DNA of 48,244 bases, from positions 1-48,244 of the IMG/VR virus record IMGVR_UViG_3300035532_000094; one strand, given 5' to 3'. Under the pieces are notes generated by a model. It saw only the letters and a list, made by a program, of their open reading frames with translations. It had not been told where the DNA came from and made no database searches. The position numbers and the translations under genes are program-made. This stretch comes from a virus. Taxonomy: Duplodnaviria; Caudoviricetes. Below are positions 10,335 to 32,587 of the stretch, in pieces (the stretch's first letter is position 1; every line of letters begins with the position of its first letter).

Positions 10335-12818
10335 ATGGCGATATACGCACCAAGTATAGACTACAGCTCAACAGCGAATGCAATCACCAACAAGTACAAT
10401 GCAAAGCGCATGGAAATTGGTGTGGACTACGGCAAACTGAGCCTTCAGTCAGACCAACTCAGCAAGAAGAGCCTTGATCTGCAACAGAAGCAGATCGACC
10501 TGAACAGGCAGAACATGTGGATGGACTTTGCACTTGGTGCAGCCCAGATTGGTGCGCAGGCATGGCAGGCAGCAAGGGATAAGACAGAGCAATCTCAGCT
10601 TGACGGTGCAAAGAACAATATTTTTGACATTTCGCAGGAACTGACAGACATTATTGTCGATGATTACAAGCACAAGCGAACAGTCATCACCACAGGAGAG
10701 GACGGAAAGGCAAAGGTTGACTGGAACCCGGACATGCAATCCTGGTATGAGGGCAAGATTGCAGAGATCGACAACTCCAAGGACATGGATAGCGTAAAGG
10801 CGTACCGAAAGAACGCACTGAACAGCCTGATGGAAGGAGCCACAACCCAACTGCTCACTGTTGCGATGAATGACGCTGATGCAGTAAGCGAAGCCCAGTA
10901 CCAGCAGGGACTCACCAAGGCCATGCAGAGCGATATGGCCAACGGTGGCACAGATATGGGCAGGAGCATCATCTACGCACGTGACGGCCTTTCGAAGGCC
11001 ATGAAGGATGTGCAGTTCGCAGCATATGAGGAAACGCTTGGATACAACCGCTCCAAGGAGACTGTCTTGCGCACTGCAAGGCTTGAGGGGATGACCAAGG
11101 CCACGGAGCTTGCCCATTCACTGGTAGGCCAGTACGGGATCATGGAAGAGGACGCGCAGGCTTTCATCGCTTCTGCTGCAAAAGGTGACGCACAGGTCAA
11201 GTCAACTCTGGTAAGTGATGCCATGACCATGTTCACATCCGGCCTTGAGCAGGGCCTCTCCCCTGCTGAACTCTACAGCCAGCTTGATGATACAACCAAG
11301 GGAATCCCAGAGGACAGGAAACAGGCAATGCAGGAAGCTGCAAAGGCTTCCCATATCACTTGGGCCACAGAACAAGGAGCCACGATGTGGATGAATGACA
11401 GCAACTCCGTGGACATCGAATACCTCAAGGAACAGAGGGACTCCATCACCAAGAAGGACGGGACAATCTACAACTCCATCTACAAGGGTCTTGATGACAT
11501 GGCCCAGAGCCAAGGGACTCTCTACGACAAGAAGATAGCCGCACTGGAGAAAACCTTTGCCGATGCTGACAATGAGCAGGTGAAGATGAACAAGGTTGTT
11601 GTGGACGGTATCAAGAGCAGACTCCAAGCCGGTGAAATGAGTGGGTATGAGGCCGCTGAGATGCTCAATTCAATCGGAGCGAATACGAAGGGAATTGAGG
11701 ATGATTTCTATGCTTCTGAGCTTGCAGGAGAGCTGAAAGACCTTGTAGTGCCTTCCGAATACAAAAAGATAGCCGAGAAAACCCTTGATGCAATGGACAA
11801 GAACAACTGGGGATACGACCTGAAGAAGGACGAGCAGAATCCCAGGGCTGCAGCCGCAAGGACCAACGCATGGGGAGCTATTGTCTCCCTATTTATGGCT
11901 ACCCCAGCCAAGGACATCACAGCCGATGCATTCAGCAAGGAACTGGACAGGATAGTCAGCGGATACACAGCCGAGACCATTGATGCGATAAGGGAAGTAA
12001 AGATTGACAGCAAGGACACCTCTGAGGATATGTTCCAAGGTGTACAGAAACTCTCAACCATCGAGGAGAATGCAGATACGGTCTACTACGATACCAATGG
12101 CAAGGTTGTCTGGTCTGATCCTGCAGTTGAAGAGGTCTTTGACCAGGTTGCAGGACAGATGAAGAATGAGCTTACAAACCTAGATATAGGCCTGCTGGTG
12201 AATACCCCTGCAGTACCGCTCACCGTTGACGGGGAAACCCTCCCTGTCCCCATGTATGTGCTTCCAGGGGAAGATGGACGTGCGCACCTCTACACGGTAA
12301 ATAGGGAAAATATCTTGCACAGCAATAATGGTGGACAGACATTCGAGGTGGTAGCATCAGCTACAGGGAGCGATCTTGCAAAGACAAAGTTGTTCTCAGA
12401 AGGAAATAAGGTGGAATCCAATAAGGTGAATGAATTGATCGAAAAGAAGACTGTTGGGAATGCCACACCAGAGAGCATGGGGCTTATGCCGAAGGCGGAG
12501 ATACCAGAATCCATGCAGATGAAGGGAGCTCCCAGCAAATTCGATGGATACAATAAACAGGCACAGGTGATTGAGCCTGCTCCTGCCAAGGATACACAAC
12601 TCACAGCTGAAGGCAATGCTGAGAACAAGAAGGCAGGGAACAGCTTCAGCCGTACTGAATACGAGTTCATCAGGACTTCCATCCTCCCCTGGATGATAAG
12701 CAATCCCGGAAAGACACCAAAAAAGGCGGATATTCCTGTACTGAAGGATATGGATACCCTATCTGATGAAGACTTCAAGGATATCTTCAACCAGATAAAG
12801 AAGGAGATGAATGGCTGA
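10335..12818 (+). CDS. Internal virion (ejection) protein 2
   Basis: 827-aa helical A/Q/K-rich protein in the ejectosome position. Confidence 0.6.
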   Translation: MAIYAPSIDYSSTANAITNKYNAKRMEIGVDYGKLSLQSDQLSKKSLDLQQKQIDLNRQNMWMDFALGAAQIGAQAWQAARDKTEQSQLDGAKNNIFDISQELTDIIVDDYKHKRTVITTGEDGKAKVDWNPDMQSWYEGKIAEIDNSKDMDSVKAYRKNALNSLMEGATTQLLTVAMNDADAVSEAQYQQGLTKAMQSDMANGGTDMGRSIIYARDGLSKAMKDVQFAAYEETLGYNRSKETVLRTARLEGMTKATELAHSLVGQYGIMEEDAQAFIASAAKGDAQVKSTLVSDAMTMFTSGLEQGLSPAELYSQLDDTTKGIPEDRKQAMQEAAKASHITWATEQGATMWMNDSNSVDIEYLKEQRDSITKKDGTIYNSIYKGLDDMAQSQGTLYDKKIAALEKTFADADNEQVKMNKVVVDGIKSRLQAGEMSGYEAAEMLNSIGANTKGIEDDFYASELAGELKDLVVPSEYKKIAEKTLDAMDKNNWGYDLKKDEQNPRAAAARTNAWGAIVSLFMATPAKDITADAFSKELDRIVSGYTAETIDAIREVKIDSKDTSEDMFQGVQKLSTIEENADTVYYDTNGKVVWSDPAVEEVFDQVAGQMKNELTNLDIGLLVNTPAVPLTVDGETLPVPMYVLPGEDGRAHLYTVNRENILHSNNGGQTFEVVASATGSDLAKTKLFSEGNKVESNKVNELIEKKTVGNATPESMGLMPKAEIPESMQMKGAPSKFDGYNKQAQVIEPAPAKDTQLTAEGNAENKKAGNSFSRTEYEFIRTSILPWMISNPGKTPKKADIPVLKDMDTLSDEDFKDIFNQIKKEMNG

Positions 12819-15800
12819 TGTTCAACCCAACAAACAACAATGACCCTTCCCAGAACAACCTCTACAGCATGACTGAAGGGCTGAACAGCCGTATTGACCA
12901 GCATATAGCCAAGGCTTCCGGTGCAGACAAGCAGGATCCTGCTGTCATGCAGGCCCAGCAGGAACAACGCCAGAGGTTGGGGATCCCGGTAACCGAACAG
13001 GAATGGGATATCATCAGCACGACTGCCATCAACAGCGAAAACCAGGAAGAGACGCTTACGAGGTTTGCCACAGCCCTTGCGTTCAGCCGTGATCGTGGTA
13101 TAAGCCTATCTTCTGCCTATGCGAATCTGGATAACTTGTACGAGGAACAGCTCGGGCAGAAATTCACCCCAGCAAAGACCACTACCAGAGCACTGCTTGA
13201 TTCATTTCAGGCCGGCCGACTCAACATGGAATACTCAGACCTAGCCTACAAATTCAAGCAGGCTGACCTTGCAGGGGAAGATACCACAGAACTGCTCGCA
13301 CAGCTTGATGCAATGGGAAGCGAGATAGACTCACTGAAGGACAACCAGCCTCGCAATGTTGCAACCACAGCCCTCAAATGGACCCTGGAGGGAGCGGTGC
13401 CTTACATGTTGGAAGTGGGAAAGAGCGCTCTCATGGGTGCAACGTTCGCAGGAGGGCTTGGAACCGCTTTTACAGCGACAACAGGAGCTGTGCTCGGCTC
13501 CATCGCTGCAGCTTCCCCCTACTCCATGGCTGCAATCATGGCAGCAGGTGGAGCGGTTGGAGCAGTGAACCGTACCCGTGAGCTTATGGAAGGTGTGAGC
13601 TACCTGCAACTCAGGGATATGGGCATAGACAAGGACATCGCCAATGTAGGGTCAAGAACCTACGGGCTTCTGGTAGGAGCTATCGAGGCAGGACTTGGTA
13701 TAGAATCTGGAACTGCACTAAAAGCTATTGGTGCATCCAATCTCGTAAACACCGCTGCATCAAAGGTAATGGCCAGAATAACTACCAGCGGATGGCTCGG
13801 TTCACTCCTGAATGGATTTACGAAACTAGGTATAAATGCCTTAGGCGAAGCAACGGAAGAGATGATCGAGGAGCCACTGGACTACCTGGTACGCCATACC
13901 TCCCATGCAATACAGGACAGCAGGGAGAAAGGATCACTTGAGCCACTTCCTGATGAAGAACTACTTAGGAACACCTTGAACGCAGGTTTGAGAGGATTGG
14001 TATCAGCAGTAGTGCTTGGAAGTGCTTCATCGGTCTTGGATACCAAGGTAGATATAGACAAGCAGGCTGCAATCAGGCGTGAGGCAGCAGCAGTACCTTC
14101 CAAGGAAGCGTTTGTTTCCTCCATGAAGCAGCAGAAACCAGATACCATCACCACATCCGATTGGGATGGGGCGATGAGTGACATCTGGGATAGAGAACAT
14201 AGTGGCATGAGAAAATCATCAGCCATAGAGAGTGACGAAAACGCCATAGCAGAGCTTGATGCAGAGAAAAGCGAGAAACAGGCCACAGGAAAGGTCAGAA
14301 GGCTCCAGAGCGGTGATTTATACACACAGGAAGCCTCTGAGGTGACAGTGTCACCAGATGGAACAGAGAACCGCAGATTGTTGGTAGGGGACCCTGCGAC
14401 CTCATCGCGTTATGGATATATCGATTATGGCATACAGGGAAACACCATCACCATCGAGGACGTACTGGTGAAGAGTGGATACGAGAGTATCAGGAAGGAA
14501 GCGGTGCTCTCCCTTGCAAAGAAGTATCCTGGATATGATATCCAGTGGGAACCCAAGAGCGAATCACTCACAGCAGTGCGTGACGAGATATTGGCAGGCA
14601 ATCCACGCGGGAATGAGGGAGGATTGCAGTACTGGGATGGTCTCACTAATCCAGACGAGAGAATGCAGATAGAAAGGCAGATAGAGAGCGCAATGCCGAA
14701 CCTGTCAGCCCCAGAGCGCGCCGTAGGAGCAACACTCATCCAGATGAGGGCCGAGGCTGCAGGAATGAACACCCAGGCATACCTTGACGCTTCCTACAAG
14801 GATGGACAGCTGTTCGGCAACGTGGATGACCTTGATGTAAACATGCAGGGAAAGCGTGGCGCTGTTGCGTTCGACGAGGACCTGAAGGCCATCATCTACG
14901 CAGGCCAGAAGGCCGATTTCTCCACGTTCGCTCATGAGACGTTCCATGTATCGCTGAGGCAGATGGGACAGCTTGAACAGTTCAGGAGTGCTGTAACAGA
15001 GGCTTCCCAGAAGCCGGAGTTCATCACGTGGCTGGACGAGCATGCAGAGCTTTTCACTGACAGTGTATTTGATGGCATGAATGCACAGGACCTTGCAGAC
15101 ATCGCTTCAGGGTTCACCAAGGACAACTGGGGACGCAGGCAGGAAGAGTTTGCAGCTCGTCTCTATGAGGGATACCTGGCAGACGGAAAGACTGCTTCCA
15201 GCAAGCTCCAGCAACTCTTCAGCCAGATTGCAAAGTGGATGGCACAAATATACACCACACTCAAGCACAGCGTTGATCTTGACCCAAGGATCATCGAGGT
15301 ATTCGATTCGTTGTCTGATTCTGACTCCCCTCTTGCCAGCCAACTTGCGACACAAGGAACAGTTAGCCAGAACAAAGAAGGTGCCCAGCTGTATCAGGAG
15401 TTTGTAAGACACTCACGGACAGACAATGGAATGTCACGTTCTGGATATGCAATGATGGTGCGTGCAGAAGAGGCTGACACTGTAGAACAATATGGTCCCA
15501 ATAAATTCACATACAATGGTGAGGATGCAGTATTCATCACAGATATTGCAGATGATATTGCACAGGCGTTTGAACGCACCAAAGAGCAAGAAGACCTTTC
15601 CTCTACCGAGTATGGAGACCTATCTGCATATGAGAATCTAAGCGGAGAGGAGTTTGTAGAACAGTTCAATCCAGAGGATATTGTGAACACAGCTGAGGCA
15701 TGGGACGACGAATCTCTTGTGTCATGGTTGTACAACGAGGTTTTGGAGCCAAATGGTATAACGGCCATAGAGACATACAATGGTGCAGTGGTATTTGATG

Positions 15801-18800
15801 AGGCCCTGTTGCAAAAAGCTGATGAATTATTGTATCAGGATGACACGCAGTCCCAATATGACGCAGTTGCTGATAAATACAGAAACACAGACCAGTGGAT
15901 GAAGGCTCCAAACGGCAATCCTACCAACCTCACTGAGAGGCAGTGGGTACAGGTACGCACTCCTAGCTTCCTGGAATGGTTCGGTGACTGGATCAATGAT
16001 CCTGGAAATGCATCGAAAGTTGTGGATGAGAATGGCGAGCCGAAGGCGGTATATCACTATACATCTGAGAAATTCAATGCTTTCGATGTATCCAAGACAC
16101 GTCAGAATATGGATATTCCAGGCTTTTACTTCTCTGATGAAAAGTCAAACTGGAAGGACATGGGAAAAAATCTTGTCTCGGCATTCCTAAACATCAGAAA
16201 CCCGATAGACAACAAGCCGATCGCCAAAGGGCAAGGAAGTATAATCCGGGACAACCTTATATCAGAAGGGTACGACGGAGCTATTACCATCGACGAGGAC
16301 ATGGAGGAGACCGAGTACCTGGCTTTCTACCCCACCCAAATCAAATCCGCAACCGACAACATCGGAACATTCGACGGGAGTAACCCTAATATCCTCTTCC
16401 AGGAAGCACCACCAACCGACAGCGAAGCATTCAAGGCATGGTTTGGTGAAAGCAAGGTCGTTGATGAGGAAGGGAAACCGCTGGTTGTGTATCATGGAAC
16501 TGATGCTGCATTTACAACTTTTAGTAATACCGGAGAAAAGCTACCATCATTGGGATATGGGTATTATTTCACTCCTGATATACGTAAAGCACAACAGTAT
16601 GGGGCTAATATCATGCCGGTTTATATTAGCGCTGAAAGGCTATTAGACTGGGGTAGCTTAAGTAATGAAGATAGATCAAAAATTATAGACAGGTTAAATG
16701 ATAAAGTACCAGAATCAGAAATAGCAGGATATGGGAGAGAAGTAAGGAAATCTTTTGACGATACAGAAGAGGGGAGACAAGCTGGAACAAAGTTTTTCGA
16801 GAAAAAGAAGGCTGAAACAGAAAACTATTTCCATGAAAGAGCGAAGGCCAGAGAAGAACGGTCCCTGGATGGACTGAAGATTGATGTAGTATGGATGGAA
16901 CCTGGGCTAGAGAACGCAAGCAATCAGGACCTCTTAGCTCTTGCACAACAGTATGACATACAGATTGCTGAAAACCTTGGGTATGATGCTGCTCGTTTCG
17001 GTAACGAGATCGTTGTCTTCGCTCCAACCAAGATCAAATCAGTCAACAACCAAGGTACATGGGATTCGAATAATCCGAACATCCTCTTCCAGGATACAGT
17101 CAGAAAGATAAACAATGGGACCTTGGCTGTTTTACATAACATAACTGCAGAAAAGCTGACAGAAGTAGATAAAATAGGTGGACTGCCTTCCCCATCGTTA
17201 GCAATAACAAAGCCGAATATCCCATTCACTCAGTTTGGTGAGATAACCCTGATTGCAGATCCATCTGTAGCAGTTAGGGCTATGGAAGAATCAAGGCTCT
17301 ATGACCGTGATATATGGAGCCCTACTGTACCAAGAGCCGAATGGAAAATAAATCAGAAGGTAATTGATAAGTTCGACAAGAAGATCATACCAGTAATTTA
17401 CAAAGAAACTGGGAAGTACTTCTCGGGATCTGATGCCTTCAGTAGCGTAGATATAAATAGAGGCGTCAACTCACTATCCGATGCTTACAAAAGAAATCTC
17501 GGAGCACAGATTGCATTTCTAAAGGATCGTGGCATAGATTACGAATTGAAATTCAAAAAACAAAAACCACCATTGAATTTCCCTATAGAAATCATTGAAG
17601 AGAATCTTGAATATTTCAAATCCAATATATTTGGAACAGAAAATTATGATACAGTAAGCGAATATCTTAGACCAAAGGTAAACCAATACCTCGAAAAGTC
17701 ACTAGCGCATCGGAAAGAAAATAATCCTGCACTGTATGAGAATATGAAGAATGACTCATTGGAACGCTATCTAAGGTTTGGTGTGCTGGATAAGGTATTC
17801 AATTTTGCAAAATCCTATGATAAAGACACTCTTGTATTTGATGAATATGGGACACAAGAAAACATAAGCCAGACCATCAAGGATAATGATAGTGATTTCA
17901 CTTCTTGGATTAAAGACAATATTGAAGAAGCATATTCAAACCCGAAGATAAAAATCGGATCAAAGAAGTATGATTATACTGCAGAGAACATTCTGAAATG
18001 GATGCAATCCCAATCACAGCGAGCATCACAGGAGACCATGACGTATGGCCCTTCCAAAGCTGCTGCGAATGCAGGTAGACCCTTCTGGAACAGGGGAGAA
18101 ATAAAAGAATCTGAAGAGTTTTTAGTAACAAGAGAGGAACAACAGAAACAATGGGTTGAGAGGATAGAGCCTATCACAGAACAATTACAAGATGAACTAC
18201 CTAATTACCATAAATATGGCACATGGGAAGCCCTTGATTCAATCTACGAAGCAATCGGAAGATATATCGAGAAATATGGTTCTGTTAGAAATTCTGCAAA
18301 TATGAGAAAAGAACTCTCTGCAAAATCATTTACAAAAGTGCCAAATTATCTCATTGAGAAAGCATTGGACCTGGTAGGTGAGTTTACAATACTTTCTCAG
18401 GATTATTTTGAGGCAAAACCAGACAGGGTTGTTTCACTTGATGAATTCTCTGTTGCAATTATACCAGAGACAATAAACGAAGAACAAATGTCCGTACTTG
18501 ATAAGTATGGCATTACTGCAATCAAATATGCAGATGAAAGCGATAGACAACAGATTGTCGAACAAGTATATGAGCAACGAGGCTCTTCCCTCCTCTTCCA
18601 GGACGACCAGGACTTCTCAGAGTCGATCCTTGAGGAAGCGCGTGGCTTCGAGAGCTGGCAGGAACTGAAGGCATTCTACGAAGCCTTTGCGGATCCCGAC
18701 AATCCATCCAGCACTGATGACTCATGGTACCAGGAGGTTTTCAACCAAGCCAATGGCATCACTGAAGATGCTGATACAGAACAACTGCAGGAGGCAACAA

Positions 18801-21800
18801 GGCAGCTGGAGAGTGAGCAAGCGAAAGACCAGTATATGAAGGACCAGCTTGCCACAGACGATGGAGTATACGCCTTCCTGCGCAATCTTGGATGGATGCT
18901 TGACAGCTCATCCGTGCAACAATCGGCAGGCAACCAGCAAACCTATGATGCCATCTACAATGTCCGTAACATGGCTGATGCAATACATCCTTCCATCATA
19001 TCCAATGCAACCAGAGCATATGGCGGGAAGAGGCCAACAGCAAGCTCCACAAAGCGTATCCGTACCATCATGACAGGAGACGCAATCAGGTACTACAGGG
19101 ACATTTATGCTGACGTGATGGAAGATGAGGAACTGCGCCCAGCAGTAATTGACTCCCGCCTTCCTGGTATCGAGGACCCGGGCTACCGTGAACTGGAAAC
19201 CATGTCCATAACCGAAAGACTGAAACTGGCAAACCGTATCGAGGCTGCACCTCTCAGAAAAGCAATTCTCTCAGGCAAGGAGACATTTGATGGTGCTGCA
19301 GAAAAGGTCATAAAGGATGATGCGATCATCATAGGGGACCTGAACAAGCAAATAAGCGATGCTGAGCAGGATATCAAGAATCTTGAGAAAAACCTTTCTG
19401 AAGAACAACAGATGCGAATCCGTATTGCAAAGGACTACAGGATCGGGAAGGCGGAGCTGGACAGGGAGCTTGCTAAGCTGCGCAAGCTGAATAATGATGG
19501 AAAGGATGTACCAAAAGCCCAGTCCCAGAAGGTATTCAGCCTGCAGAAAAGCGTTGCAGACATGCACAAAGAGGTCATGAAGATGCGCAAGGATGCACGT
19601 CTTGAAGCGACCATCAAGAAGCATGAGGCGGTTGCAAAGCTCAAGGAACAGCTTGCAGAGAAGCGCAAGGCAGTAGCCGAGGCCAAGCAGGTACGTGATT
19701 ACAAGGTGAAGCTGGCCCGCAAGATCATGGTCAAACCCAGTGATGCAACCAACTACGAGCAGGCAAAGGCCATATATGGCATACAGGCCCTGATCGATCC
19801 CAACTTCAGGCGGGATGGTGTCAATGTTGCAGAGGGTGGACAGCGAGTCAAGTTGACCCTAGAAGAAGCACAGGAATTCTTCTCAGGAACTTCTGAGGAC
19901 GAGATAATTGACGCCATCGGGAAGCGGAACTATGAGCGTCTTGTCGAGGAGCGAAAACCACTCAACGACTGGACCATCAATGAGCTTGAAGAATTGGCCA
20001 ACGAGGTAGCAGAGCTGCGTCACACTGGACGCAGGATCCTTGCAGCAAAGCGGGAGAGACAGGTTGCGATTGCCCAGCAGTACCAGGACTCCATTATCCG
20101 CAGTCTCATGGCAACCGGTAAGTATACCGACCAGCCGATCGTGGGAACCAGGGAGGATCAGGCAGAGAGACAAAGCCCGAAAAGGACCTTGAGGGCGATG
20201 TACTATGCTACCTACCCCATGCGCGTTAAGGCCATGATGCTGGACGGTGATAGACAGGGTGATGCGTACAACCTGCTCATGTTGCAGAAGAGGGACGCAC
20301 AGGCTCGTGAGTGGGTGAATGTGGAAAGAAGACTCAAGCCTTTCTATGATGCAATGAAGGAGCTTGGTTTCACGTACAAGGACTTGTATGAGACGGTTCC
20401 CATTGACCTTGACATGCATAAAAACTGGAACATGCCATACTCACAGCTTATGTACGGATGGCTCAGCCAATACAACCAGGACAACCGTAACGCCATTGCC
20501 TACGGCACTTTTGTTACACAGGAGGAAAAGGCAAGCCTATCACATGACAGCAAGCTCATACAGGTACTCGGTGACCAGCGATACAACTCTTTCCTGGAAC
20601 AGGCCGAGTACTACCTGTACTCCGATGAGCATGGTGGGAAGTATGGAAAACTGCTTGAGGTTATCCGTGAGAGTCTCAATGGTGATGCAGAGCGAATAAA
20701 CGAGGTTGCAATCCGTGAGTTCAACAAGCCGATGCGCCATGTCGAGCAATATCTTCCCATCCTGCGCCTTGCATTCAATGGTGAGGATATGGCAGAGCAG
20801 GTGGCTGAGGACTTATTCAACCAGAATGCAGGAGGCATGAGAACCTCAGTAGAGAAAGGATTCATGACAGATCGTATCTTCATCAGTCCAGATCACCAGA
20901 AGCCGGTTAACATGGACCTGATCAGTGTACTCGACCAGAGTGTAAGAAATCAGGAGCATTTCATTGCTTTCGCTGAATACGGACGCAAGCTGAACAGGGT
21001 TTTTAAGGACAGGGGCTCGGACGACCTGAAACATGTCATCACAAGAACCTTGGGAAGTGAGATGATGGATGACATCAACGATTATATCAACCAGGTAATC
21101 AATCCAACGCAGAGGACTGAACTCCATAACCTGCAGAAAGGAATCAGGTTCATGAGAGGAAACCTTGGTGCTGCATACCTGTCATTCAAGCCTTCATCTG
21201 TTCTATTACAGTTGATTACCTCCCCATGGCCGAGCGTGATTGATGTAAAGCCCAAGTATCTCATACAGGGCTACCTGCAACTGTTGAAGCATCCTGTTGA
21301 GACGGTACAGGAAATCAATGAGCGCTCACCCATGATGAAAAACAGGACCATGAACGTAATCATAGACGAGATACTCAAGCAGGCAAGGGCAATCGGGGAC
21401 CCGAAGATCATGCAGCAGATTGCAAGGATACAGGAAGTGGGCTCCCTTGGTCTTACCTATGCAGACCGGTATTCGGTTGCAGGGCAATGGATGGGTGCAT
21501 TCCACCAAAGAATGGATGAATTGAATGCTGAGGGTATTGCATCAGAGAAGGCTGAGCAAATGGCAACTGTGTACGCAGACAACATCCTGCTCAAGACGCA
21601 GCCTACCGGGGATAGGACCGAGCTGGCTCCCCTGTTCAATACCAGGAACGAGTTCGTGCGTTCCTTCATCCAGTTCACCACCTCCTTGAATGTCATATGG
21701 AGCAACATCACCTACGATATGCGTGTTGCAGCCAATGACAGCATGAACAAAACCATGCCTGATGATGTACGCAAGACCCAGTTCTCCAAAGTGATCGGTA

Positions 21801-22189
21801 CACTCGTAGGATATGGGATGGCTGGGCTCTTGCTGGGAGCAGTGATGGAAGGTCATGACGAGGACGATGATAAGATTGACAAGCTGCGCAACTACATATA
21901 CTGGTCATTCACCCAGGGTGCAGACTCAGTTCCCCTGATAGGCAGTCAGGTAAGTGAGCTGATCAGGAGTGCGGTGACCGGAGATAATGCACAGTTCTAC
22001 AGCGATGATTTCTATCCCGGCATGACCAAGATACTCAACGGTGCAAAATACCTCACACAGGGGGATATCTCCAAGGCTCTCGAAAACTTCGGGAAGGGAG
22101 CTGGGTACATGGTCGGTTTGCCGGTTAGCGGAGCCCAACAGATAGTGGATGCAGTAAGAGAAGGTCCTGAAGCCTTAATCGGACGATGA
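12818..22189 (+). CDS. Giant internal virion / polyvalent protein (zincin-like peptidase motif, two ART-PolyVal-like ADP-ribosyltransferase domains, further modules)
   Basis: 3123 aa; hydrophobic N-terminal segments; HETFH at 14933-14947 with downstream EEFAA; two VVDE.G.P..VYH.T...G.YF...IKS..N.GT domains; third ejectosome position. Confidence 0.85.
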   Translation: MFNPTNNNDPSQNNLYSMTEGLNSRIDQHIAKASGADKQDPAVMQAQQEQRQRLGIPVTEQEWDIISTTAINSENQEETLTRFATALAFSRDRGISLSSAYANLDNLYEEQLGQKFTPAKTTTRALLDSFQAGRLNMEYSDLAYKFKQADLAGEDTTELLAQLDAMGSEIDSLKDNQPRNVATTALKWTLEGAVPYMLEVGKSALMGATFAGGLGTAFTATTGAVLGSIAAASPYSMAAIMAAGGAVGAVNRTRELMEGVSYLQLRDMGIDKDIANVGSRTYGLLVGAIEAGLGIESGTALKAIGASNLVNTAASKVMARITTSGWLGSLLNGFTKLGINALGEATEEMIEEPLDYLVRHTSHAIQDSREKGSLEPLPDEELLRNTLNAGLRGLVSAVVLGSASSVLDTKVDIDKQAAIRREAAAVPSKEAFVSSMKQQKPDTITTSDWDGAMSDIWDREHSGMRKSSAIESDENAIAELDAEKSEKQATGKVRRLQSGDLYTQEASEVTVSPDGTENRRLLVGDPATSSRYGYIDYGIQGNTITIEDVLVKSGYESIRKEAVLSLAKKYPGYDIQWEPKSESLTAVRDEILAGNPRGNEGGLQYWDGLTNPDERMQIERQIESAMPNLSAPERAVGATLIQMRAEAAGMNTQAYLDASYKDGQLFGNVDDLDVNMQGKRGAVAFDEDLKAIIYAGQKADFSTFAHETFHVSLRQMGQLEQFRSAVTEASQKPEFITWLDEHAELFTDSVFDGMNAQDLADIASGFTKDNWGRRQEEFAARLYEGYLADGKTASSKLQQLFSQIAKWMAQIYTTLKHSVDLDPRIIEVFDSLSDSDSPLASQLATQGTVSQNKEGAQLYQEFVRHSRTDNGMSRSGYAMMVRAEEADTVEQYGPNKFTYNGEDAVFITDIADDIAQAFERTKEQEDLSSTEYGDLSAYENLSGEEFVEQFNPEDIVNTAEAWDDESLVSWLYNEVLEPNGITAIETYNGAVVFDEALLQKADELLYQDDTQSQYDAVADKYRNTDQWMKAPNGNPTNLTERQWVQVRTPSFLEWFGDWINDPGNASKVVDENGEPKAVYHYTSEKFNAFDVSKTRQNMDIPGFYFSDEKSNWKDMGKNLVSAFLNIRNPIDNKPIAKGQGSIIRDNLISEGYDGAITIDEDMEETEYLAFYPTQIKSATDNIGTFDGSNPNILFQEAPPTDSEAFKAWFGESKVVDEEGKPLVVYHGTDAAFTTFSNTGEKLPSLGYGYYFTPDIRKAQQYGANIMPVYISAERLLDWGSLSNEDRSKIIDRLNDKVPESEIAGYGREVRKSFDDTEEGRQAGTKFFEKKKAETENYFHERAKAREERSLDGLKIDVVWMEPGLENASNQDLLALAQQYDIQIAENLGYDAARFGNEIVVFAPTKIKSVNNQGTWDSNNPNILFQDTVRKINNGTLAVLHNITAEKLTEVDKIGGLPSPSLAITKPNIPFTQFGEITLIADPSVAVRAMEESRLYDRDIWSPTVPRAEWKINQKVIDKFDKKIIPVIYKETGKYFSGSDAFSSVDINRGVNSLSDAYKRNLGAQIAFLKDRGIDYELKFKKQKPPLNFPIEIIEENLEYFKSNIFGTENYDTVSEYLRPKVNQYLEKSLAHRKENNPALYENMKNDSLERYLRFGVLDKVFNFAKSYDKDTLVFDEYGTQENISQTIKDNDSDFTSWIKDNIEEAYSNPKIKIGSKKYDYTAENILKWMQSQSQRASQETMTYGPSKAAANAGRPFWNRGEIKESEEFLVTREEQQKQWVERIEPITEQLQDELPNYHKYGTWEALDSIYEAIGRYIEKYGSVRNSANMRKELSAKSFTKVPNYLIEKALDLVGEFTILSQDYFEAKPDRVVSLDEFSVAIIPETINEEQMSVLDKYGITAIKYADESDRQQIVEQVYEQRGSSLLFQDDQDFSESILEEARGFESWQELKAFYEAFADPDNPSSTDDSWYQEVFNQANGITEDADTEQLQEATRQLESEQAKDQYMKDQLATDDGVYAFLRNLGWMLDSSSVQQSAGNQQTYDAIYNVRNMADAIHPSIISNATRAYGGKRPTASSTKRIRTIMTGDAIRYYRDIYADVMEDEELRPAVIDSRLPGIEDPGYRELETMSITERLKLANRIEAAPLRKAILSGKETFDGAAEKVIKDDAIIIGDLNKQISDAEQDIKNLEKNLSEEQQMRIRIAKDYRIGKAELDRELAKLRKLNNDGKDVPKAQSQKVFSLQKSVADMHKEVMKMRKDARLEATIKKHEAVAKLKEQLAEKRKAVAEAKQVRDYKVKLARKIMVKPSDATNYEQAKAIYGIQALIDPNFRRDGVNVAEGGQRVKLTLEEAQEFFSGTSEDEIIDAIGKRNYERLVEERKPLNDWTINELEELANEVAELRHTGRRILAAKRERQVAIAQQYQDSIIRSLMATGKYTDQPIVGTREDQAERQSPKRTLRAMYYATYPMRVKAMMLDGDRQGDAYNLLMLQKRDAQAREWVNVERRLKPFYDAMKELGFTYKDLYETVPIDLDMHKNWNMPYSQLMYGWLSQYNQDNRNAIAYGTFVTQEEKASLSHDSKLIQVLGDQRYNSFLEQAEYYLYSDEHGGKYGKLLEVIRESLNGDAERINEVAIREFNKPMRHVEQYLPILRLAFNGEDMAEQVAEDLFNQNAGGMRTSVEKGFMTDRIFISPDHQKPVNMDLISVLDQSVRNQEHFIAFAEYGRKLNRVFKDRGSDDLKHVITRTLGSEMMDDINDYINQVINPTQRTELHNLQKGIRFMRGNLGAAYLSFKPSSVLLQLITSPWPSVIDVKPKYLIQGYLQLLKHPVETVQEINERSPMMKNRTMNVIIDEILKQARAIGDPKIMQQIARIQEVGSLGLTYADRYSVAGQWMGAFHQRMDELNAEGIASEKAEQMATVYADNILLKTQPTGDRTELAPLFNTRNEFVRSFIQFTTSLNVIWSNITYDMRVAANDSMNKTMPDDVRKTQFSKVIGTLVGYGMAGLLLGAVMEGHDEDDDKIDKLRNYIYWSFTQGADSVPLIGSQVSELIRSAVTGDNAQFYSDDFYPGMTKILNGAKYLTQGDISKALENFGKGAGYMVGLPVSGAQQIVDAVREGPEALIGR
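15389..18603 (+). repeat. Five short in-frame direct repeats at module boundaries
   Basis: TGTATCAGGA at 15390 and 15831; TCCTCTTCCAGGA at 16392, 17082 and 18591; all encode L-[YF]-Q-[DE]. Confidence 0.85.
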
Positions 22190-27466: not shown

Positions 27467-28543
27467 CTATTTTTCTCCTTTCTTCTTGAGCGTATAGGTT
27501 ACGCTCTTCTTCGTATATTGTTCATACAGTCCGTCTTTCTTCAATGCGGATGTATCCACAGAACTTCTCTCACTCTTGGTCAGAGTCCAGTTCCCAACCT
27601 CAACCTTCGTGGAGTCCTCAGCCATTCCCTCACTGAGTGTCCGCTTGAGAGCGTCCTTGAGGGCCTTGATTTCAGTCTCCAACGTATCCAATCCATGCTT
27701 CTCCCTTAGGGAAGCAAGCTCCGCCTCTTTTGCATCCAAGAGCGTAATCATCGAACCAAGAGAAGTGTCCTCATCCTCGTCCGGCTTCTCCGTCTTGAGT
27801 GCCTTGATGATGGTCTCGTCAGCCTTGTGGTCAATCTCGGGGGAGATTCCGGTCTCCACATATGACTCCCACCACTGCTCGGCATAGGCCATCAACTCAG
27901 AGATTGTAGTGGGTTCACCATCGAACATCACTGTTGCTGTCTCTGTATCAAAAGTATACAGCCTTACGTTCTCTCCGTCAATAGGGACGAAGCGGTCGGG
28001 GTGCATATAGTCCTCGTCATCAAGGAAAGCTCCGATTACGAAGGTTCTCTTTGCTCCCTCAAGGTGTCCATACTGCAACGCCTGCACCAACTTCTCATCG
28101 GGAACACCATCACCCCAATCCTGCGCACGTCCTGTGGTCTTGATTTCTATGACCGCAACCGTCTCGTTGTTGATGTTGACAACCTTTGCGTCCCACATGC
28201 CACCGAATACCTTGCTCTGTCCCTTATAGAAATCGTACTGCCTCTTGACCTCGGGCCACATGTTGCCGTAGAACTCGGCAGGACTCTTGACACCATTACC
28301 GAACTGCTCCTTAGCCCAATCGATAAGGATAGGCTCGATGGCATTTCCTGCTTGGGTGTATTTGTTCTCGGTGAAGGGTTCCTTATACACTCTACAGATT
28401 TCACACCATACTGCAAACGGACTCTTCCATGGATTCAAGCCGAGTGCGCTTCCAAGTCTTGTGGCCGTAACCTTCAATGGTCGTTTCTGTGGTTCATCCA
28501 AGATAACTCTTGTTCTCTCTTTATTAAATCGCCAGTCCATCAT
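27467..28543 (-). CDS. YqaJ/lambda-exonuclease-like recombination nuclease
   Basis: ALGLNPWKSPF, GNAIEP, D...IEIKT, QALQY motifs. Confidence 0.85.
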   Translation of the reverse strand: MMDWRFNKERTRVILDEPQKRPLKVTATRLGSALGLNPWKSPFAVWCEICRVYKEPFTENKYTQAGNAIEPILIDWAKEQFGNGVKSPAEFYGNMWPEVKRQYDFYKGQSKVFGGMWDAKVVNINNETVAVIEIKTTGRAQDWGDGVPDEKLVQALQYGHLEGAKRTFVIGAFLDDEDYMHPDRFVPIDGENVRLYTFDTETATVMFDGEPTTISELMAYAEQWWESYVETGISPEIDHKADETIIKALKTEKPDEDEDTSLGSMITLLDAKEAELASLREKHGLDTLETEIKALKDALKRTLSEGMAEDSTKVEVGNWTLTKSERSSVDTSALKKDGLYEQYTKKSVTYTLKKKGEK

Positions 28544-29339
28544 ACTCTCCTGCTTTCAGTTCGAGCTTGGTAAGGATGACCGTAGCACGAGTCGCTGTGA
28601 TACCTTTCTCTACCTCAGTCAAGGTTTTCTCACCGTATCCCTCGTCACCGCTTGCTTCACGGATTTTCTTGATGCCTTCCGTGATACGAGTGACATCTTC
28701 TTTACTTGCAGGATTGTCGTCCTTGACTGCCTTCTCCACATCAGCCTTCTTCTCGGCAGGAGAAGTGAACTTGCGCTTGGTGGTAGCCTTGGGGCCTTTG
28801 TCGGCCTCGGGGTCGTCCTCGGCATCGGATACAAGATAGTTGGTCTTGATGAAATCCTTGAGCATGAGGGTCTTGGCCTTGCTGAGTCCCTTGTCAAGGT
28901 TGTCAGCACCTTGCGACCAGAGCATGTAGGTTTCCTGCTCGTCACTGTCAACGTCCTTGATAGTGAGCATTGCGTGATACAAAGTGAGTATCATCTTGTC
29001 ACTCTTCTCAAGATTGTTGATTTGGATGGTCACATCGTCCACCTTGTGGCGGAGTCTGTTCTTTACCAATGCCTTGCGGAAGATGGTCTTGTATTGCTGA
29101 GCACGGACGTACTCATATGCTTGACTGGGATTGTATCCATCCTTCACGAACTCACTGGCGAGTTGCGCAACATCCTCGGCAAGCTGGAACAGCTTCTGCT
29201 GGAATGTCTTTGGCTCTTCTTTCACTTGTTCTTTCTTCTCCTTCACTGCCTTTTTAGCAGGTGCTTTCTTTGGTTTGACTTCCATTTCAACTGGCTCGTC
29301 CTCGATGACCTCTACGTCCACGTAATTATCCGTTTTCAC
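28524..29339 (-). CDS. erf: ERF-family ssDNA-annealing protein
   Basis: KDGYN..YEY and G.D..DKG.SKA.T...K...DDPEAD ERF pattern; paired with exonuclease. Confidence 0.75.
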   Translation of the reverse strand: MKTDNYVDVEVIEDEPVEMEVKPKKAPAKKAVKEKKEQVKEEPKTFQQKLFQLAEDVAQLASEFVKDGYNPSQAYEYVRAQQYKTIFRKALVKNRLRHKVDDVTIQINNLEKSDKMILTLYHAMLTIKDVDSDEQETYMLWSQGADNLDKGLSKAKTLMLKDFIKTNYLVSDAEDDPEADKGPKATTKRKFTSPAEKKADVEKAVKDDNPASKEDVTRITEGIKKIREASGDEGYGEKTLTEVEKGITATRATVILTKLELKAGEYDGLAI

Positions 29340-31177
29340 TTTTTACTCCTCTTCTTTCTCTTTGGTTTGATACCCAAGAACTCGTCTCTTCTCTTTGTTG
29401 CAAGTTCAATATACCACTGTTTATCTATCTTGTCAACACCCAAAATACCGGAATTATCAACAATCGCATGTTCGGGACAATTCGCTATCCTATCCCTTCT
29501 CCCATCGGCCTTTATCTTGTAGACAGCACCGAGTCTCTCGTCCTTCCCAGCATAGACCCTGTTGGTTCTATTGACCTCCACCTCACCGAAACCATTGACA
29601 TGGACAACCTTCTCATAAGTTCCCCCTGCCTTGGTTATCATCTGGAAAGCAAAAGGGTCTTGCTCGTTGTTGATGGTTTCCTCAATGGGTATCCCATCGA
29701 GCAGGTTGTTGGTGATAGCACGACAGACTACTGACATGGAATTATGCTTGAAACTACCACCCTTGTAATCAGAGACGACACCTCCCTTGACCTTAATTTT
29801 CCCACCGAGTTCACGCATGACATAATTGTTCACATCACGCTGTACCACTACCTCAATGCCTTTCTCCTCCATTTCAAACTGTGTCAATTCTTCCCATGTG
29901 CAAACAATGGAACGAACCTCTCGTATCCATACTCTATCAATGGAAAACATGATACCGTCTGTGTTAGAAGATATGAGAGTAAAGGATGGTACATGATTGG
30001 AGAGTGTGTTAATCAACATTACAAGATACAACTGTCCGCTGATACATGTGCTATGGGCCATGAGGGGGTCATACAAATCATTATACTTATTGTTGGAAGC
30101 CCCGTAGGTCGTGTTTAGAACTAGTTTAAGAGCGTCCGATGTTTTCAAATCCTCTTTCTGCTTTGCCTCGATACGTTTATGAAAAGTGTCCTCGAAAGTT
30201 TCTGGGTCAGCAACATTTCTACTGAGGTATCGATTCTTAATCATCAGAGAAGGATAGTAACTTTGCACATCGTAGTTAAGAATGATTCTTTTATCAGTGG
30301 ATACTTCGGAATAATTGACCAGTGCACCGTGGAGTCCTCCCCATCCCAACACATGGGGACAACCTGCTATCTCAATCGAAAGAGAGCGATAAGGATTCCT
30401 GCTCTTGACCACTTTTCCATCTTCATCCGGTACACCTTCTCGTCCAAAGAGAATGTCCAATGGTATTTCTCCTTCTGGAAGGCGGTCAAAGAACTCAAAA
30501 ACCTCCTGTGGTACCAAACCCTTATCCACATTCTCCGGATACACATACGCCCTCTCGTCATCCCTCTCAACTCGTTGAGCACCCAAAAACAGGGCGGTCA
30601 ACTTGGCATTCGTCATATTAAGTGCCGATTTCACATTCAATCCCTTCATTTCAGCCAAAGTCTCCTTGGCCTCAAGGTAAGGAAGGCGAGCATCGTAGAG
30701 CGGAATCAAAGCCTCCACATCGTGCCAACAATATTCCTCCAACTCCTTCCACTGTTCCTTGGTTGGATGCTCTGTGTTGAAATCGACCTCGGACTCACGG
30801 ATGTCCATCTTGAGGTTCCCCTCAATCATCTTGAGGGAAGGGCGGGTCGGAAGGTCGAGCATGAGGTCGAACGACTGAGGCAACTTGACCCATCCCATGT
30901 CAATCTCCCACCCCTGCATACCATTGATAATGATTGCATCGTTGACGGCTTTCACGTCCTCCGGTGTCCCTCCTGCGAGGATGGCCTTGATGATGTAGTT
31001 GTCATAATGCTTGCAGTTGTACCCACAGAGGAACGGCCTCTCCGTCTCCAAGAACCCCCTCAGCATCGCTGTGTCATTGTGGATTGCCACCCGCTTCACC
31101 TTGTTGGTCGCACAGAACAACCAGTCATGGGGAAGCACCTCGGTGTCAAAGAACCACACTTCGTCTCTCCAGTCCAT
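29336..31177 (-). CDS. Family B DNA polymerase with 3'-5' exonuclease
   Basis: Exo I DTE, Exo II YN...YD, Exo III YCWHD; Pol motifs DVQSYYPS, KLVLNTTYG, NTDG. Confidence 0.9.
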   Translation of the reverse strand: MDWRDEVWFFDTEVLPHDWLFCATNKVKRVAIHNDTAMLRGFLETERPFLCGYNCKHYDNYIIKAILAGGTPEDVKAVNDAIIINGMQGWEIDMGWVKLPQSFDLMLDLPTRPSLKMIEGNLKMDIRESEVDFNTEHPTKEQWKELEEYCWHDVEALIPLYDARLPYLEAKETLAEMKGLNVKSALNMTNAKLTALFLGAQRVERDDERAYVYPENVDKGLVPQEVFEFFDRLPEGEIPLDILFGREGVPDEDGKVVKSRNPYRSLSIEIAGCPHVLGWGGLHGALVNYSEVSTDKRIILNYDVQSYYPSLMIKNRYLSRNVADPETFEDTFHKRIEAKQKEDLKTSDALKLVLNTTYGASNNKYNDLYDPLMAHSTCISGQLYLVMLINTLSNHVPSFTLISSNTDGIMFSIDRVWIREVRSIVCTWEELTQFEMEEKGIEVVVQRDVNNYVMRELGGKIKVKGGVVSDYKGGSFKHNSMSVVCRAITNNLLDGIPIEETINNEQDPFAFQMITKAGGTYEKVVHVNGFGEVEVNRTNRVYAGKDERLGAVYKIKADGRRDRIANCPEHAIVDNSGILGVDKIDKQWYIELATKRRDEFLGIKPKRKKRSKK

Positions 31178-32274
31178 TATATCCCCTTAGCGTTCCATAT
31201 AGGCAACGCAATTTCTATGATTTCAACAGTGTCACTGACTGTCGCAATGATACTCGAAGATTCTTTGTAGGCCATGGGAGACTCATCCAGTGTATCCTTT
31301 GATACGCAAGACGAATACACTCCTTTCATTGTGTCCTCGAACTCGCTTAGCGACAGTTCTTTCTTGGCTTGGCTACGGCTCATTATGCGACCAGCACCGT
31401 GTGGTGCGGAAAAATTCCAATCGGCGTTACCTTTGCCGTAACCTAAAATGATGCCATCACGCATATTCAAAGGTATCACTACTTCCTCATCTTCATATGC
31501 GGATATTGCTCCTTTACGAATGAAACCTTTTTCAGTATCAATATAATTGTGTATCGAATTGACACGAAATTGTGATGTTCCTAAAAAATCCAGCATGTCA
31601 TCTATTATAGCCTCTCTGTTACGGATTGCGTATGTCTGAGCTATTTTCATGGCATCGAGATATTCTAGAGCTAGTTCACCATCTAAATATGCCAATTCTT
31701 TAGGTACTTCTGGATGGATACTCTGTGCCAACTTTTGGTAATGTAAGGCAATTTTCAATCCAAAATTTCTTGAACCTGTGTGCACTGTAAACCAATTACC
31801 TCGCCCACCTTTTTCTATTTCAGCAAAGTGATTCCCGCCACCAAGAGTCCCTAATGAAAGACGCACATCTTTGAAGTTTTGATTGGTCTTAGCACATATC
31901 TCTTCCATCTTACCATAATCATCTTGAAAATAATCATCGTATATGCTGTTTTCTCTTTTATGAAAACCAGTAGGGATATGGGCTTGGAAAAAACGGTCTA
32001 TGTCTGACAACGAAGGGATATTATTACCTACAAGAACAGACGACACGCCACAACCAATGTCAACCCCAATAAGATTAGGTATTATCTTATCTGTCACCTT
32101 TGCTGTAAAACCAATCACACAACCTGCACCAGCATGAACGTCTGGCATAATACATACGTTTGCACCTTCTGCAAAAGGTTGATTCAACAACAATATAATT
32201 TGTGATACCGCTGACTGTTCCACATTATCGGCATAAACCTTTGCCTTTCCATACTTTCCTTCCAATTCAAACAT
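31177..32274 (-). CDS. rtcB: RtcB RNA ligase
   Basis: MPDVHAG, GVDIGCG, GGGNHF, HTGSR, HNY, RKGA, SAPHGAGR, DESPMAYK motifs; start at ATG 32274 with RBS AGGAG. Confidence 0.95.
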   Translation of the reverse strand: MFELEGKYGKAKVYADNVEQSAVSQIILLLNQPFAEGANVCIMPDVHAGAGCVIGFTAKVTDKIIPNLIGVDIGCGVSSVLVGNNIPSLSDIDRFFQAHIPTGFHKRENSIYDDYFQDDYGKMEEICAKTNQNFKDVRLSLGTLGGGNHFAEIEKGGRGNWFTVHTGSRNFGLKIALHYQKLAQSIHPEVPKELAYLDGELALEYLDAMKIAQTYAIRNREAIIDDMLDFLGTSQFRVNSIHNYIDTEKGFIRKGAISAYEDEEVVIPLNMRDGIILGYGKGNADWNFSAPHGAGRIMSRSQAKKELSLSEFEDTMKGVYSSCVSKDTLDESPMAYKESSSIIATVSDTVEIIEIALPIWNAKGI

Positions 32275-32284
32275 TTTTATTCTC

Positions 32285-32587
32285 CTACATAATGTCATGT
32301 TCACGCAATACACGGAACACATCTTTTTCTGATAGTTTCAGCCTACCAGCAATCTCCTTGATTGTCAAGACCTCGCCAAGCTCCAATATGCGGTCAAGTT
32401 TCTTTGACGGAATCTGCTTTTTCTTCTCATGGCTCTTGTATAAAGGACAACTCGCCTTCATGCAGTGCCATGTCTCTTTCTTCCTGTCGTAGTAGAGCGT
32501 CTGACCACATTCACACTTCCTCACGGTCAGCACCCAACTCTCCGGTATCCTGTCATCATCAACGATATGGTAGTATCTGTCCATCAT
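32285..32587 (-). CDS. Zinc-ribbon plus HTH DNA-binding protein
   Basis: CxC...CxxxxC then LTIKEIAGRLKLSEKDVFRVL. Confidence 0.6.
   Translation of the reverse strand: MMDRYYHIVDDDRIPESWVLTVRKCECGQTLYYDRKKETWHCMKASCPLYKSHEKKKQIPSKKLDRILELGEVLTIKEIAGRLKLSEKDVFRVLREHDIM

Follow-up and report, generated by a model that had tools for sequence, protein, structure and literature searches.

The DNA analysed here is the virus record IMGVR_UViG_3300035532_000094 (48,244 bases, called the window below), and the subject is a giant gene whose 3123-residue product carries a series of modules separated by a short repeated peptide, L-(F/Y)-Q, called the tag. By its marker genes (terminase, portal, GP7-type capsid, Bbp16/Bbp19-like and tail-tube genes) the virus is a BPP-1-like podophage. 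Three open reading frames (ORFs) separate the tail-tube genes from a tail gene, and the giant gene (12818-22189, plus strand) is the last and largest of them; family scans identify its flanks as virion genes (portal, GP7 capsid, tail-tube, tail). This places the product, by gene order, at the ejection-protein position, which in distant relatives is held by BPP-1 Bbp10, UFJF_PfDIW6 and Carin1 gp32. Because of this position, the protein is presumed to be packed into the virion and to enter the cell along with the DNA.

A Pfam scan of the giant protein gives two matches to PF18760 (ART-PolyVal, an ADP-ribosyltransferase, ART) and one to PF18814 (PBECR5), all above the curated cut-offs. With at least two conflict-type domains encoded among late virion genes, it is by domain content a phage polyvalent protein. 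Its order is N-terminal scaffold, predicted zincin peptidase, a 147-residue module of no recognized kind, two ART-PolyVal modules, a 503-residue PBECR5 module and C-terminal scaffold, as follows (a slash marks the module border within each tag).

12818-14617, plus: N-terminal conserved scaffold, residues 1-600, with a Gly/Ala-rich hydrophobic stretch; weak phrog_3654 match
14618-15340, plus: predicted zincin-like metallopeptidase (MPTase); HETFH at 14933-14947, third ligand E777 at 15146
15386-15400, plus: junction 1, QLYQ/E, Q860; DNA TGTATCAGGA
15398-15838, plus: module 1, 147 residues, no family; missing from the relatives L002 and L003
15827-15841, plus: junction 2, LLYQ/D, Q1007; DNA TGTATCAGGA
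15839-16402, plus: module 2, 188 residues, ART-PolyVal ADP-ribosyltransferase; PF18760, E 3e-21
16391-16405, plus: junction 3, ILFQ/E, Q1195; DNA TCCTCTTCCAGGA
16403-17092, plus: module 3, 230 residues, second ART-PolyVal, with an insert; PF18760, E 2e-20
17081-17095, plus: junction 4, ILFQ/D, Q1425
17093-18601, plus: module 4, 503 residues, PBECR5 predicted RNase with an unnamed C-terminal half; PF18814, E 2e-25
18590-18604, plus: junction 5, LLFQ/D, Q1928
18602-22189, plus: C-terminal conserved scaffold, residues 1929-3123, free of L[FY]Q; phrog_9880

The HETFH motif (residues 706-710), the EEFAA segment, the five glutamines and the module sizes of 147, 188, 230 and 503 residues were all recomputed as given in a preliminary description of this DNA. 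That description had also called modules 3 and 4 AT-rich, which holds (GC 0.43 and 0.38) and is incomplete, since module 1 is shifted too (0.44) and module 2 is not (0.47); the scaffolds have 0.52 and 0.50. At third codon positions, GC is 0.55 and 0.59 in the scaffolds and 0.40, 0.57, 0.37 and 0.34 in modules 1 to 4. Modules 1, 3 and 4 are AT-shifted, and module 2 is native-like in composition.

The catalytic triad of ART-PolyVal (Tox-ART-HYD2 clade) is described as H on strand 1, Y on strand 2 and D on strand 5 (PMC5512222). The matching segments, with strands assigned by motif, are VYHYT, GFYFS and GYDGA in module 2 and VYHGT, GYYFT and GYDAA in module 3. Pfam, PHROGs, NCBIfam, PDB and GenBank phages gave no relative of module 1, nor did the ART profile made for this analysis, and the sole match to the module in a search of viral contigs is a record identical to the gene of the window. 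There is a weak lead to AcrIF11-like ADP-ribosyltransferases (atlas score 0.90, low recognition).

The tag occurs exactly five times in the 3123 residues, always as L[FY]Q[DE] and always at a module border, and its confinement to the borders stands as first described. L[FY]Q[DE] is expected 0.16 times, and none of 10,000 shuffles gave four. The claimed repetition of the junction DNA is also borne out: across the full window TGTATCAGGA is present twice and TCCTCTTCCAGGA three times, every copy at a junction. Three junctions of this gene share 13-14 identical nucleotides, and three identical Leu-Phe-Gln codon triples have a chance of about 0.008 from codon usage; the pair J1-J3 shares 5 nucleotides only. 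The excess likeness of the junctions fits homogenisation by crossovers. Modules unrelated to the ARTs end in the tag, as does the peptidase linker, so the repeat was rejected as an artefact of domain duplication, in line with the argument that duplication alone is insufficient.

The family was surveyed with 150 cluster representatives, 115 of which have at least 800 residues after the peptidase; 83 of these have the C-terminal scaffold. Downstream of the peptidase, no tripeptide of the 83 scaffold-bearing representatives is more over-represented than LFQ (127 occurrences against 11.7 expected); it is found in 66 of them, and the tag is retained between proteins less than 50% identical. The 295 distinct L[FY]Q junctions mostly have I, V, L or T ahead of the motif, and no fixed residue follows its glutamine (T 20%, E 19%, D 12%, S 9%, G 7%). 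By these counts the consensus of the tag is (I/V/L)-L-(F/Y)-Q, and the acidic next residue and the CAG-GA codons are lineage traits. The codons had been described as always CAG-GA, which is true of the gene in the window; in relatives CAA and non-acidic next residues are common.

The conservation is at the level of the protein. Codons were counted at 81 distinct junctions of DNA loci, with two near-duplicate loci excluded. The glutamine codon is CAG in 60 (59.2 expected from the usage of each gene) and CAA in 21 (21.8 expected), and the genes of L013 and L096 have CAA at every junction. Fixation is confined to the first two positions of each codon; the third is 46-74% conserved, and CTC for leucine is mildly enriched (36 against 27.3 expected). 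Since the tag is conserved in amino acids and its glutamine codons follow the usage of each gene, it does not appear to be a dedicated recombination site, and that candidate was rejected.

Close relatives gain, lose and replace modules in frame at the tag. Both scaffolds of L002 and L003 are 94-98% identical to those of the window (for L002, 95% over residues 1-861 and 98% over the C-terminal scaffold), and both relatives lack module 1 and have a 128-residue module in place of module 4. Between the window and L002, identity falls from 33/33 upstream to 6/42 downstream at Q860, rises from 11/33 to 41/42 at Q1007, falls from 32/33 to 11/42 at Q1425 and rises from 8/33 to 42/42 at Q1928, and the switch is within the tag at all four borders tested. 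Among 56 family sequences, 25 belong to the subfamily, or 23 distinct proteins once 2 duplicates are removed. These have 82 tags in 14,506 residues of variable region and 25 in 46,327 residues outside it, and 22 of 52 internal alignment ends are at most 8 residues from a tag (3.3 expected); these proteins are related, and the counts are not independent. About nine module types (at least nine) recur in varied orders, most of them without a family. They derive from 14 clusters, of which H, J, K, L and N resemble fragments or divergent forms of others and were left out of the type count.

Metagenome contigs from 8 runs of 8 studies provide 10 distinct joints, most of which come from contigs placed at 85% likeness and are flagged 'between: not known'. 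Six of the 10 have both ends within about 21 nucleotides of junctions. An exact 441-nucleotide skip in runs X4 and X7 (two studies) corresponds to module 1, with 10 letters that fit either side, and run X4 has both forms, as a contig with module 1 is also present. Run X10 has an exact 1509-nucleotide skip that corresponds to module 4. The other four joints are inside the conserved ends of ART modules, as are several blastn block ends, which suggests that homology between paralogous ARTs is also used in swaps. Most crossovers seen in relatives and contigs are inside the 10-14 nucleotide junction repeat, and some are inside the paralogous ARTs. The proposal that breakpoints fall on the junction is thus right for most joints and not for these four, and the proposal of an in-frame swap site holds in that modules are exchanged there, but not as a DNA recombination site, since synonymous codons follow gene usage.

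Several tag-bounded modules of relatives (L022:12920-13360, L011:13049-14002, L012:13481-13984 and L096:13418-14050) are candidate new early effectors; one is weakly GNAT-like (E 0.002) and the rest are family-less. Two other changes in the C-terminal scaffold are distant from any tag: clustered compensating indels at 19257-19381 in several runs, and an in-frame 105-nucleotide deletion in L003 at about 20004-20108.

In other polyvalent proteins the tag type appears to shift along with the peptidase type. Module 2 homologues in other scaffolds (120 listed of 976; 97 non-redundant) end in DIRFS, DIRYS or ILYQ-type tails. Among the 97, the tail type of the module recurs elsewhere in the same protein more often than expected (30 against 18.4, and 17 against 8.6), and the other tail type has no excess in the same proteins (7 against 9.6, and 13 against 13.2). 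Six of the non-redundant proteins combine a tail with an F-x-HE signature, and 5 of these have hydrophobic-led tails (hydrophobic-aromatic/Met/His-Q); all 12 with the three other peptidase signatures have R/K-led tails. This tally was made by hand, with three proteins of other signatures left out. One module has LFQ flanks in the family of the window protein and INFS and VSFA flanks in P0108.

The peptidase is predicted, from alignment and model, to be a zincin-like MPTase with an HExxH helix and a downstream glutamate. In an alignment of 104 sequences H706, E707 and H710 never vary, and E777, the third ligand within EEFAA (776-780), is kept in at least 90%; this constancy is partly by selection. 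Among 56 homologues found through the C-terminal scaffold alone, HExxH is present in 56 and the tag in 55. The region has no match to a Pfam peptidase family, and is 27-31% identical to the corresponding regions of Bbp10, UFJF_PfDIW6 and Carin1 gp32. An AlphaFold model from 90 sequences (predicted local distance difference test, pLDDT, 89.8; predicted template modelling score, pTM, 0.88) replaced one from 24 sequences, which was all-helical and gave an empty fold search. The model has two clear strands, at residues 679-685 and 691-695, plus bridges, ahead of the HExxH helix, where the zincin fold has a sheet of three strands, and the glutamate is on the following helix. After a low-confidence or disordered linker, the first tag (L858-E861) is modelled as a beta-strand whose sole multi-residue partners are 679-685 and 691-695. 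Strand 679-685, which has a conserved glycine in 79 of 90 sequences, is presumably the substrate-binding edge strand, by zincin anatomy. In the model, the first tag probably pairs with this active-site edge strand, and the tag strand is a hint only, because the tag is aligned in about one-third of the alignment rows. A tag-like segment, VNMQG, lies immediately before the edge strand (residues 674-678, 14837-14851) and may mark an additional cut N-terminal to the peptidase.

Taken together, the giant protein is probably a self-processing cargo polyprotein, in which the predicted zincin cuts beside the glutamine of each tag and the coding sequence of the cut site doubles as microhomology for in-frame swaps; the probability of this reading is put at roughly 65%. 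The protein would be packed in the virion and ejected with the DNA. The peptidase would bind the tag as an extended strand and cut next to the glutamine, with a cut after glutamine (Q/X) favoured over one between Phe and Gln because the residue after glutamine is free. The products would be an 860-residue N-terminal piece, the four modules and a 1195-residue C-terminal piece, and the early targets of the freed ARTs and PBECR5 in infection would be proteins or RNA of the host. The weakest step is the timing, which is put during or after ejection rather than head assembly; it is the least certain because processing of P1 DdrB precedes its packaging, and N4 virion RNA polymerase (vRNAP) is packaged whole (PMC5512222, PMC13434306).

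The same reading would account for the swaps. Since a tag would be required at the end of each module, the 10-14 nucleotides that encode it would offer microhomology in frame, at which an exonuclease/annealase pair could exchange cassettes, and this exchange would homogenise the junction DNA within a lineage. Such pairs work with short homologies. The window has genes for a YqaJ/RecE-like exonuclease and an Erf-like annealase (27467-29339, minus strand; phrog_434, phrog_155, PF09588), which are the likely machinery for the crossovers.

Several observations weigh against self-processing. The specificity of zincins is usually for the residue that follows the cut, and here that residue is free. 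The homologues P0014, P0179 and P0239 have degenerate or no strict tags, and none of the 56 homologues selected by the C-terminal scaffold has a dead peptidase that could serve as a natural control. Shared descent alone could make the tag and peptidase types co-vary. On the structural side, the shallow first model had zero strands, and the tail of the later model has modest confidence (block means 60 and 51). A Foldseek search with this model gave no match at E 0.001; the top rows from VIA-align are zincin-fold chains (Z 5.1-5.8, root-mean-square deviation 3.5-4.6, 139-162 aligned), with scores too low to prove a fold; and the 90-sequence profile, run against the sequences of solved structures, found low-complexity matches only. 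Finally, N4 vRNAP, which has an HExxH domain, is packaged whole, with no degradation in the preparation examined by cryo-electron microscopy (PMC5512222, PMC13434306).

The intact N4 protein suits the best-surviving alternative, which is nevertheless unlikely: the tag is bound but uncut, or helps the packaging, unfolding or threading of a beads-on-a-string chain through the tail, and the modules act while tethered. The protein-level conservation and the modelled strand are as consistent with binding as with cutting. Against it, the catalytic-type residues are all kept (the counts given above), and there is one tag per border, both outer borders included, which is the layout required to free each module.

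It is more doubtful that another protease, from the host or an unrecognised phage protein, cuts the tag and that the zincin targets a host protein or the cell wall. A preprint on phi24B proposes wall degradation by the metallopeptidase in the polyvalent protein gp47 (bioRxiv 10.64898/2026.04.10.717836), and many ORFs of the window are family-less. The scanned ORFs match no protease family, apart from a gene between portal and capsid that has a weak PHROG label 'protease' (E 7e-5) and resembles a T7-type scaffold, and the tag type tracks the signature of the built-in peptidase. A head-maturation protease as the cutter is unsupported; the capsid, the scaffold and both tail-tube proteins lack the tag. 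Least probable of all, and largely refuted by the codon comparison, is a junction that is mainly a DNA element (a site-specific or hotspot recombination site) or a passive crossover scar with the peptide as by-product: the near-identical junction DNA and the crossovers within it favour this, and against it stand third codon positions that vary as in the rest of each gene, the genes written wholly with CAA, the 5 nucleotides of J1-J3, the four joints within ART modules, the tag's persistence between divergent proteins and the lack of an integrase-type match in the ORFs scanned.

The class of polyvalent proteins and the idea of their self-cleavage are already published: Iyer 2017 defined the class and proposed processing by the MPTase, citing that of P1 DdrB, and gave a case of mosaic module content among orthologues, Helicobacter jhp1044 (PMC5512222). 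The window protein resembles that class in being a large multidomain protein of the virion block with an MPTase that has HExxH followed by a Glu, and with ART-PolyVal and PBECR domains, and differs from that account in having a defined tag at each border and crossovers mapped to the nucleotide. The consulted passages of Iyer 2017 name no cleavage or junction motif, and its supplements could show the tag (PMC5512222). The literature searched, which included few subscription papers, yielded no junction tag or demonstrated MPTase self-cleavage. What this analysis adds is a definition of the tag, its conservation as protein in a wide family, and swap points resolved to the nucleotide.

N4 gp50 and phi24B gp47 are also giant packaged ejection proteins with an HExxH or metallopeptidase domain; N4 gp50 is reported intact, and the window protein, unlike it, has no RNA polymerase (PMC13434306; bioRxiv 10.64898/2026.04.10.717836). 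The relevant portions of these two papers describe no junction tags or processing of the giant protein. Bbp10, UFJF_PfDIW6 and Carin1 gp32 (L114-L116) share the gene position and a homologous peptidase with the window protein but have no tag array downstream of it; each has 1-3 L/V-[FY]-Q matches, most of them upstream of the peptidase.

Multifunctional autoprocessing repeats-in-toxin (MARTX) proteins have a conserved delivery frame, a variable effector cassette, an internal cysteine protease activated by inositol phosphate, and RTX/MARTX repeats, and their effectors are exchanged by recombination. The preliminary description had called the locus a MARTX-like payload system. The likeness is one of logic (delivery frame, effector cassettes, internal protease, recombinational exchange) and does not extend to membership, as the window protein is a phage virion protein with an HExxH zinc peptidase and a bacterial target cell, and the Pfam scans of it match ART-PolyVal and PBECR5 only, with no RTX/MARTX family.

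The host of the phage is likely a spirochaete, since the best genome-borne homologues of the giant protein are in Sphaerochaetaceae and Treponema assemblies. A full homologue (L096:10001-17656) lies inside a 1.4-Mb Sphaerochaetaceae contig, which suggests an integrated relative of the phage. No integrase-type family was matched in scans of the window ORFs, including 46 further ORFs, many of them family-less, despite this prophage-like relative; a recombinase supplied by the host would be another possibility. The sequencing runs that contain window DNA carry the labels oil field, landfill, subsurface, wastewater and sludge, and no RNA runs are among those listed.

Other genes of the window also have unusual features. 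The 827-residue putative core protein adjacent to the giant gene (10335-12818) has a single tag-like match, DMFQ/G, at residue 568, which may be chance or a site cut in trans. The terminase ATPase (266-1234) stops after 322 residues and is followed by an overlapping 261-residue ORF (1231-2016) with no Pfam match; the two are possibly a large terminase split into two genes. An RtcB RNA ligase gene (31177-32322, minus strand) lies within the replication block of this phage, whose giant protein has a predicted RNase.

In its broadest form, the proposal is that the phage ejection proteins of this family are programmable payload chains, in which a lineage-specific zincin and a four-residue tag are a matched pair, the DNA of the tag is the swap point, tagged domains release themselves, and the clade-specific tags form a code. 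The odds for and against this are about even; the tags it cites are I-L-F-Q in the clade of the window and I-R-F/Y-S in other peptidase clades. If it is true, any domain that gains the tag would become an injectable, self-released early effector. The locus itself offers five exact candidate cut sites, one catalytic residue and natural module-deletion variants, which make the self-processing of polyvalent proteins by the zincin, predicted in 2017, directly testable. By the tag, giant phage proteins that lack annotation, hundreds in number, can also be divided into candidate modules for anti-defence or host takeover, and the tag ties a constraint on the protein to a pattern of recombination, which would account for the in-frame shuffling of cargo.

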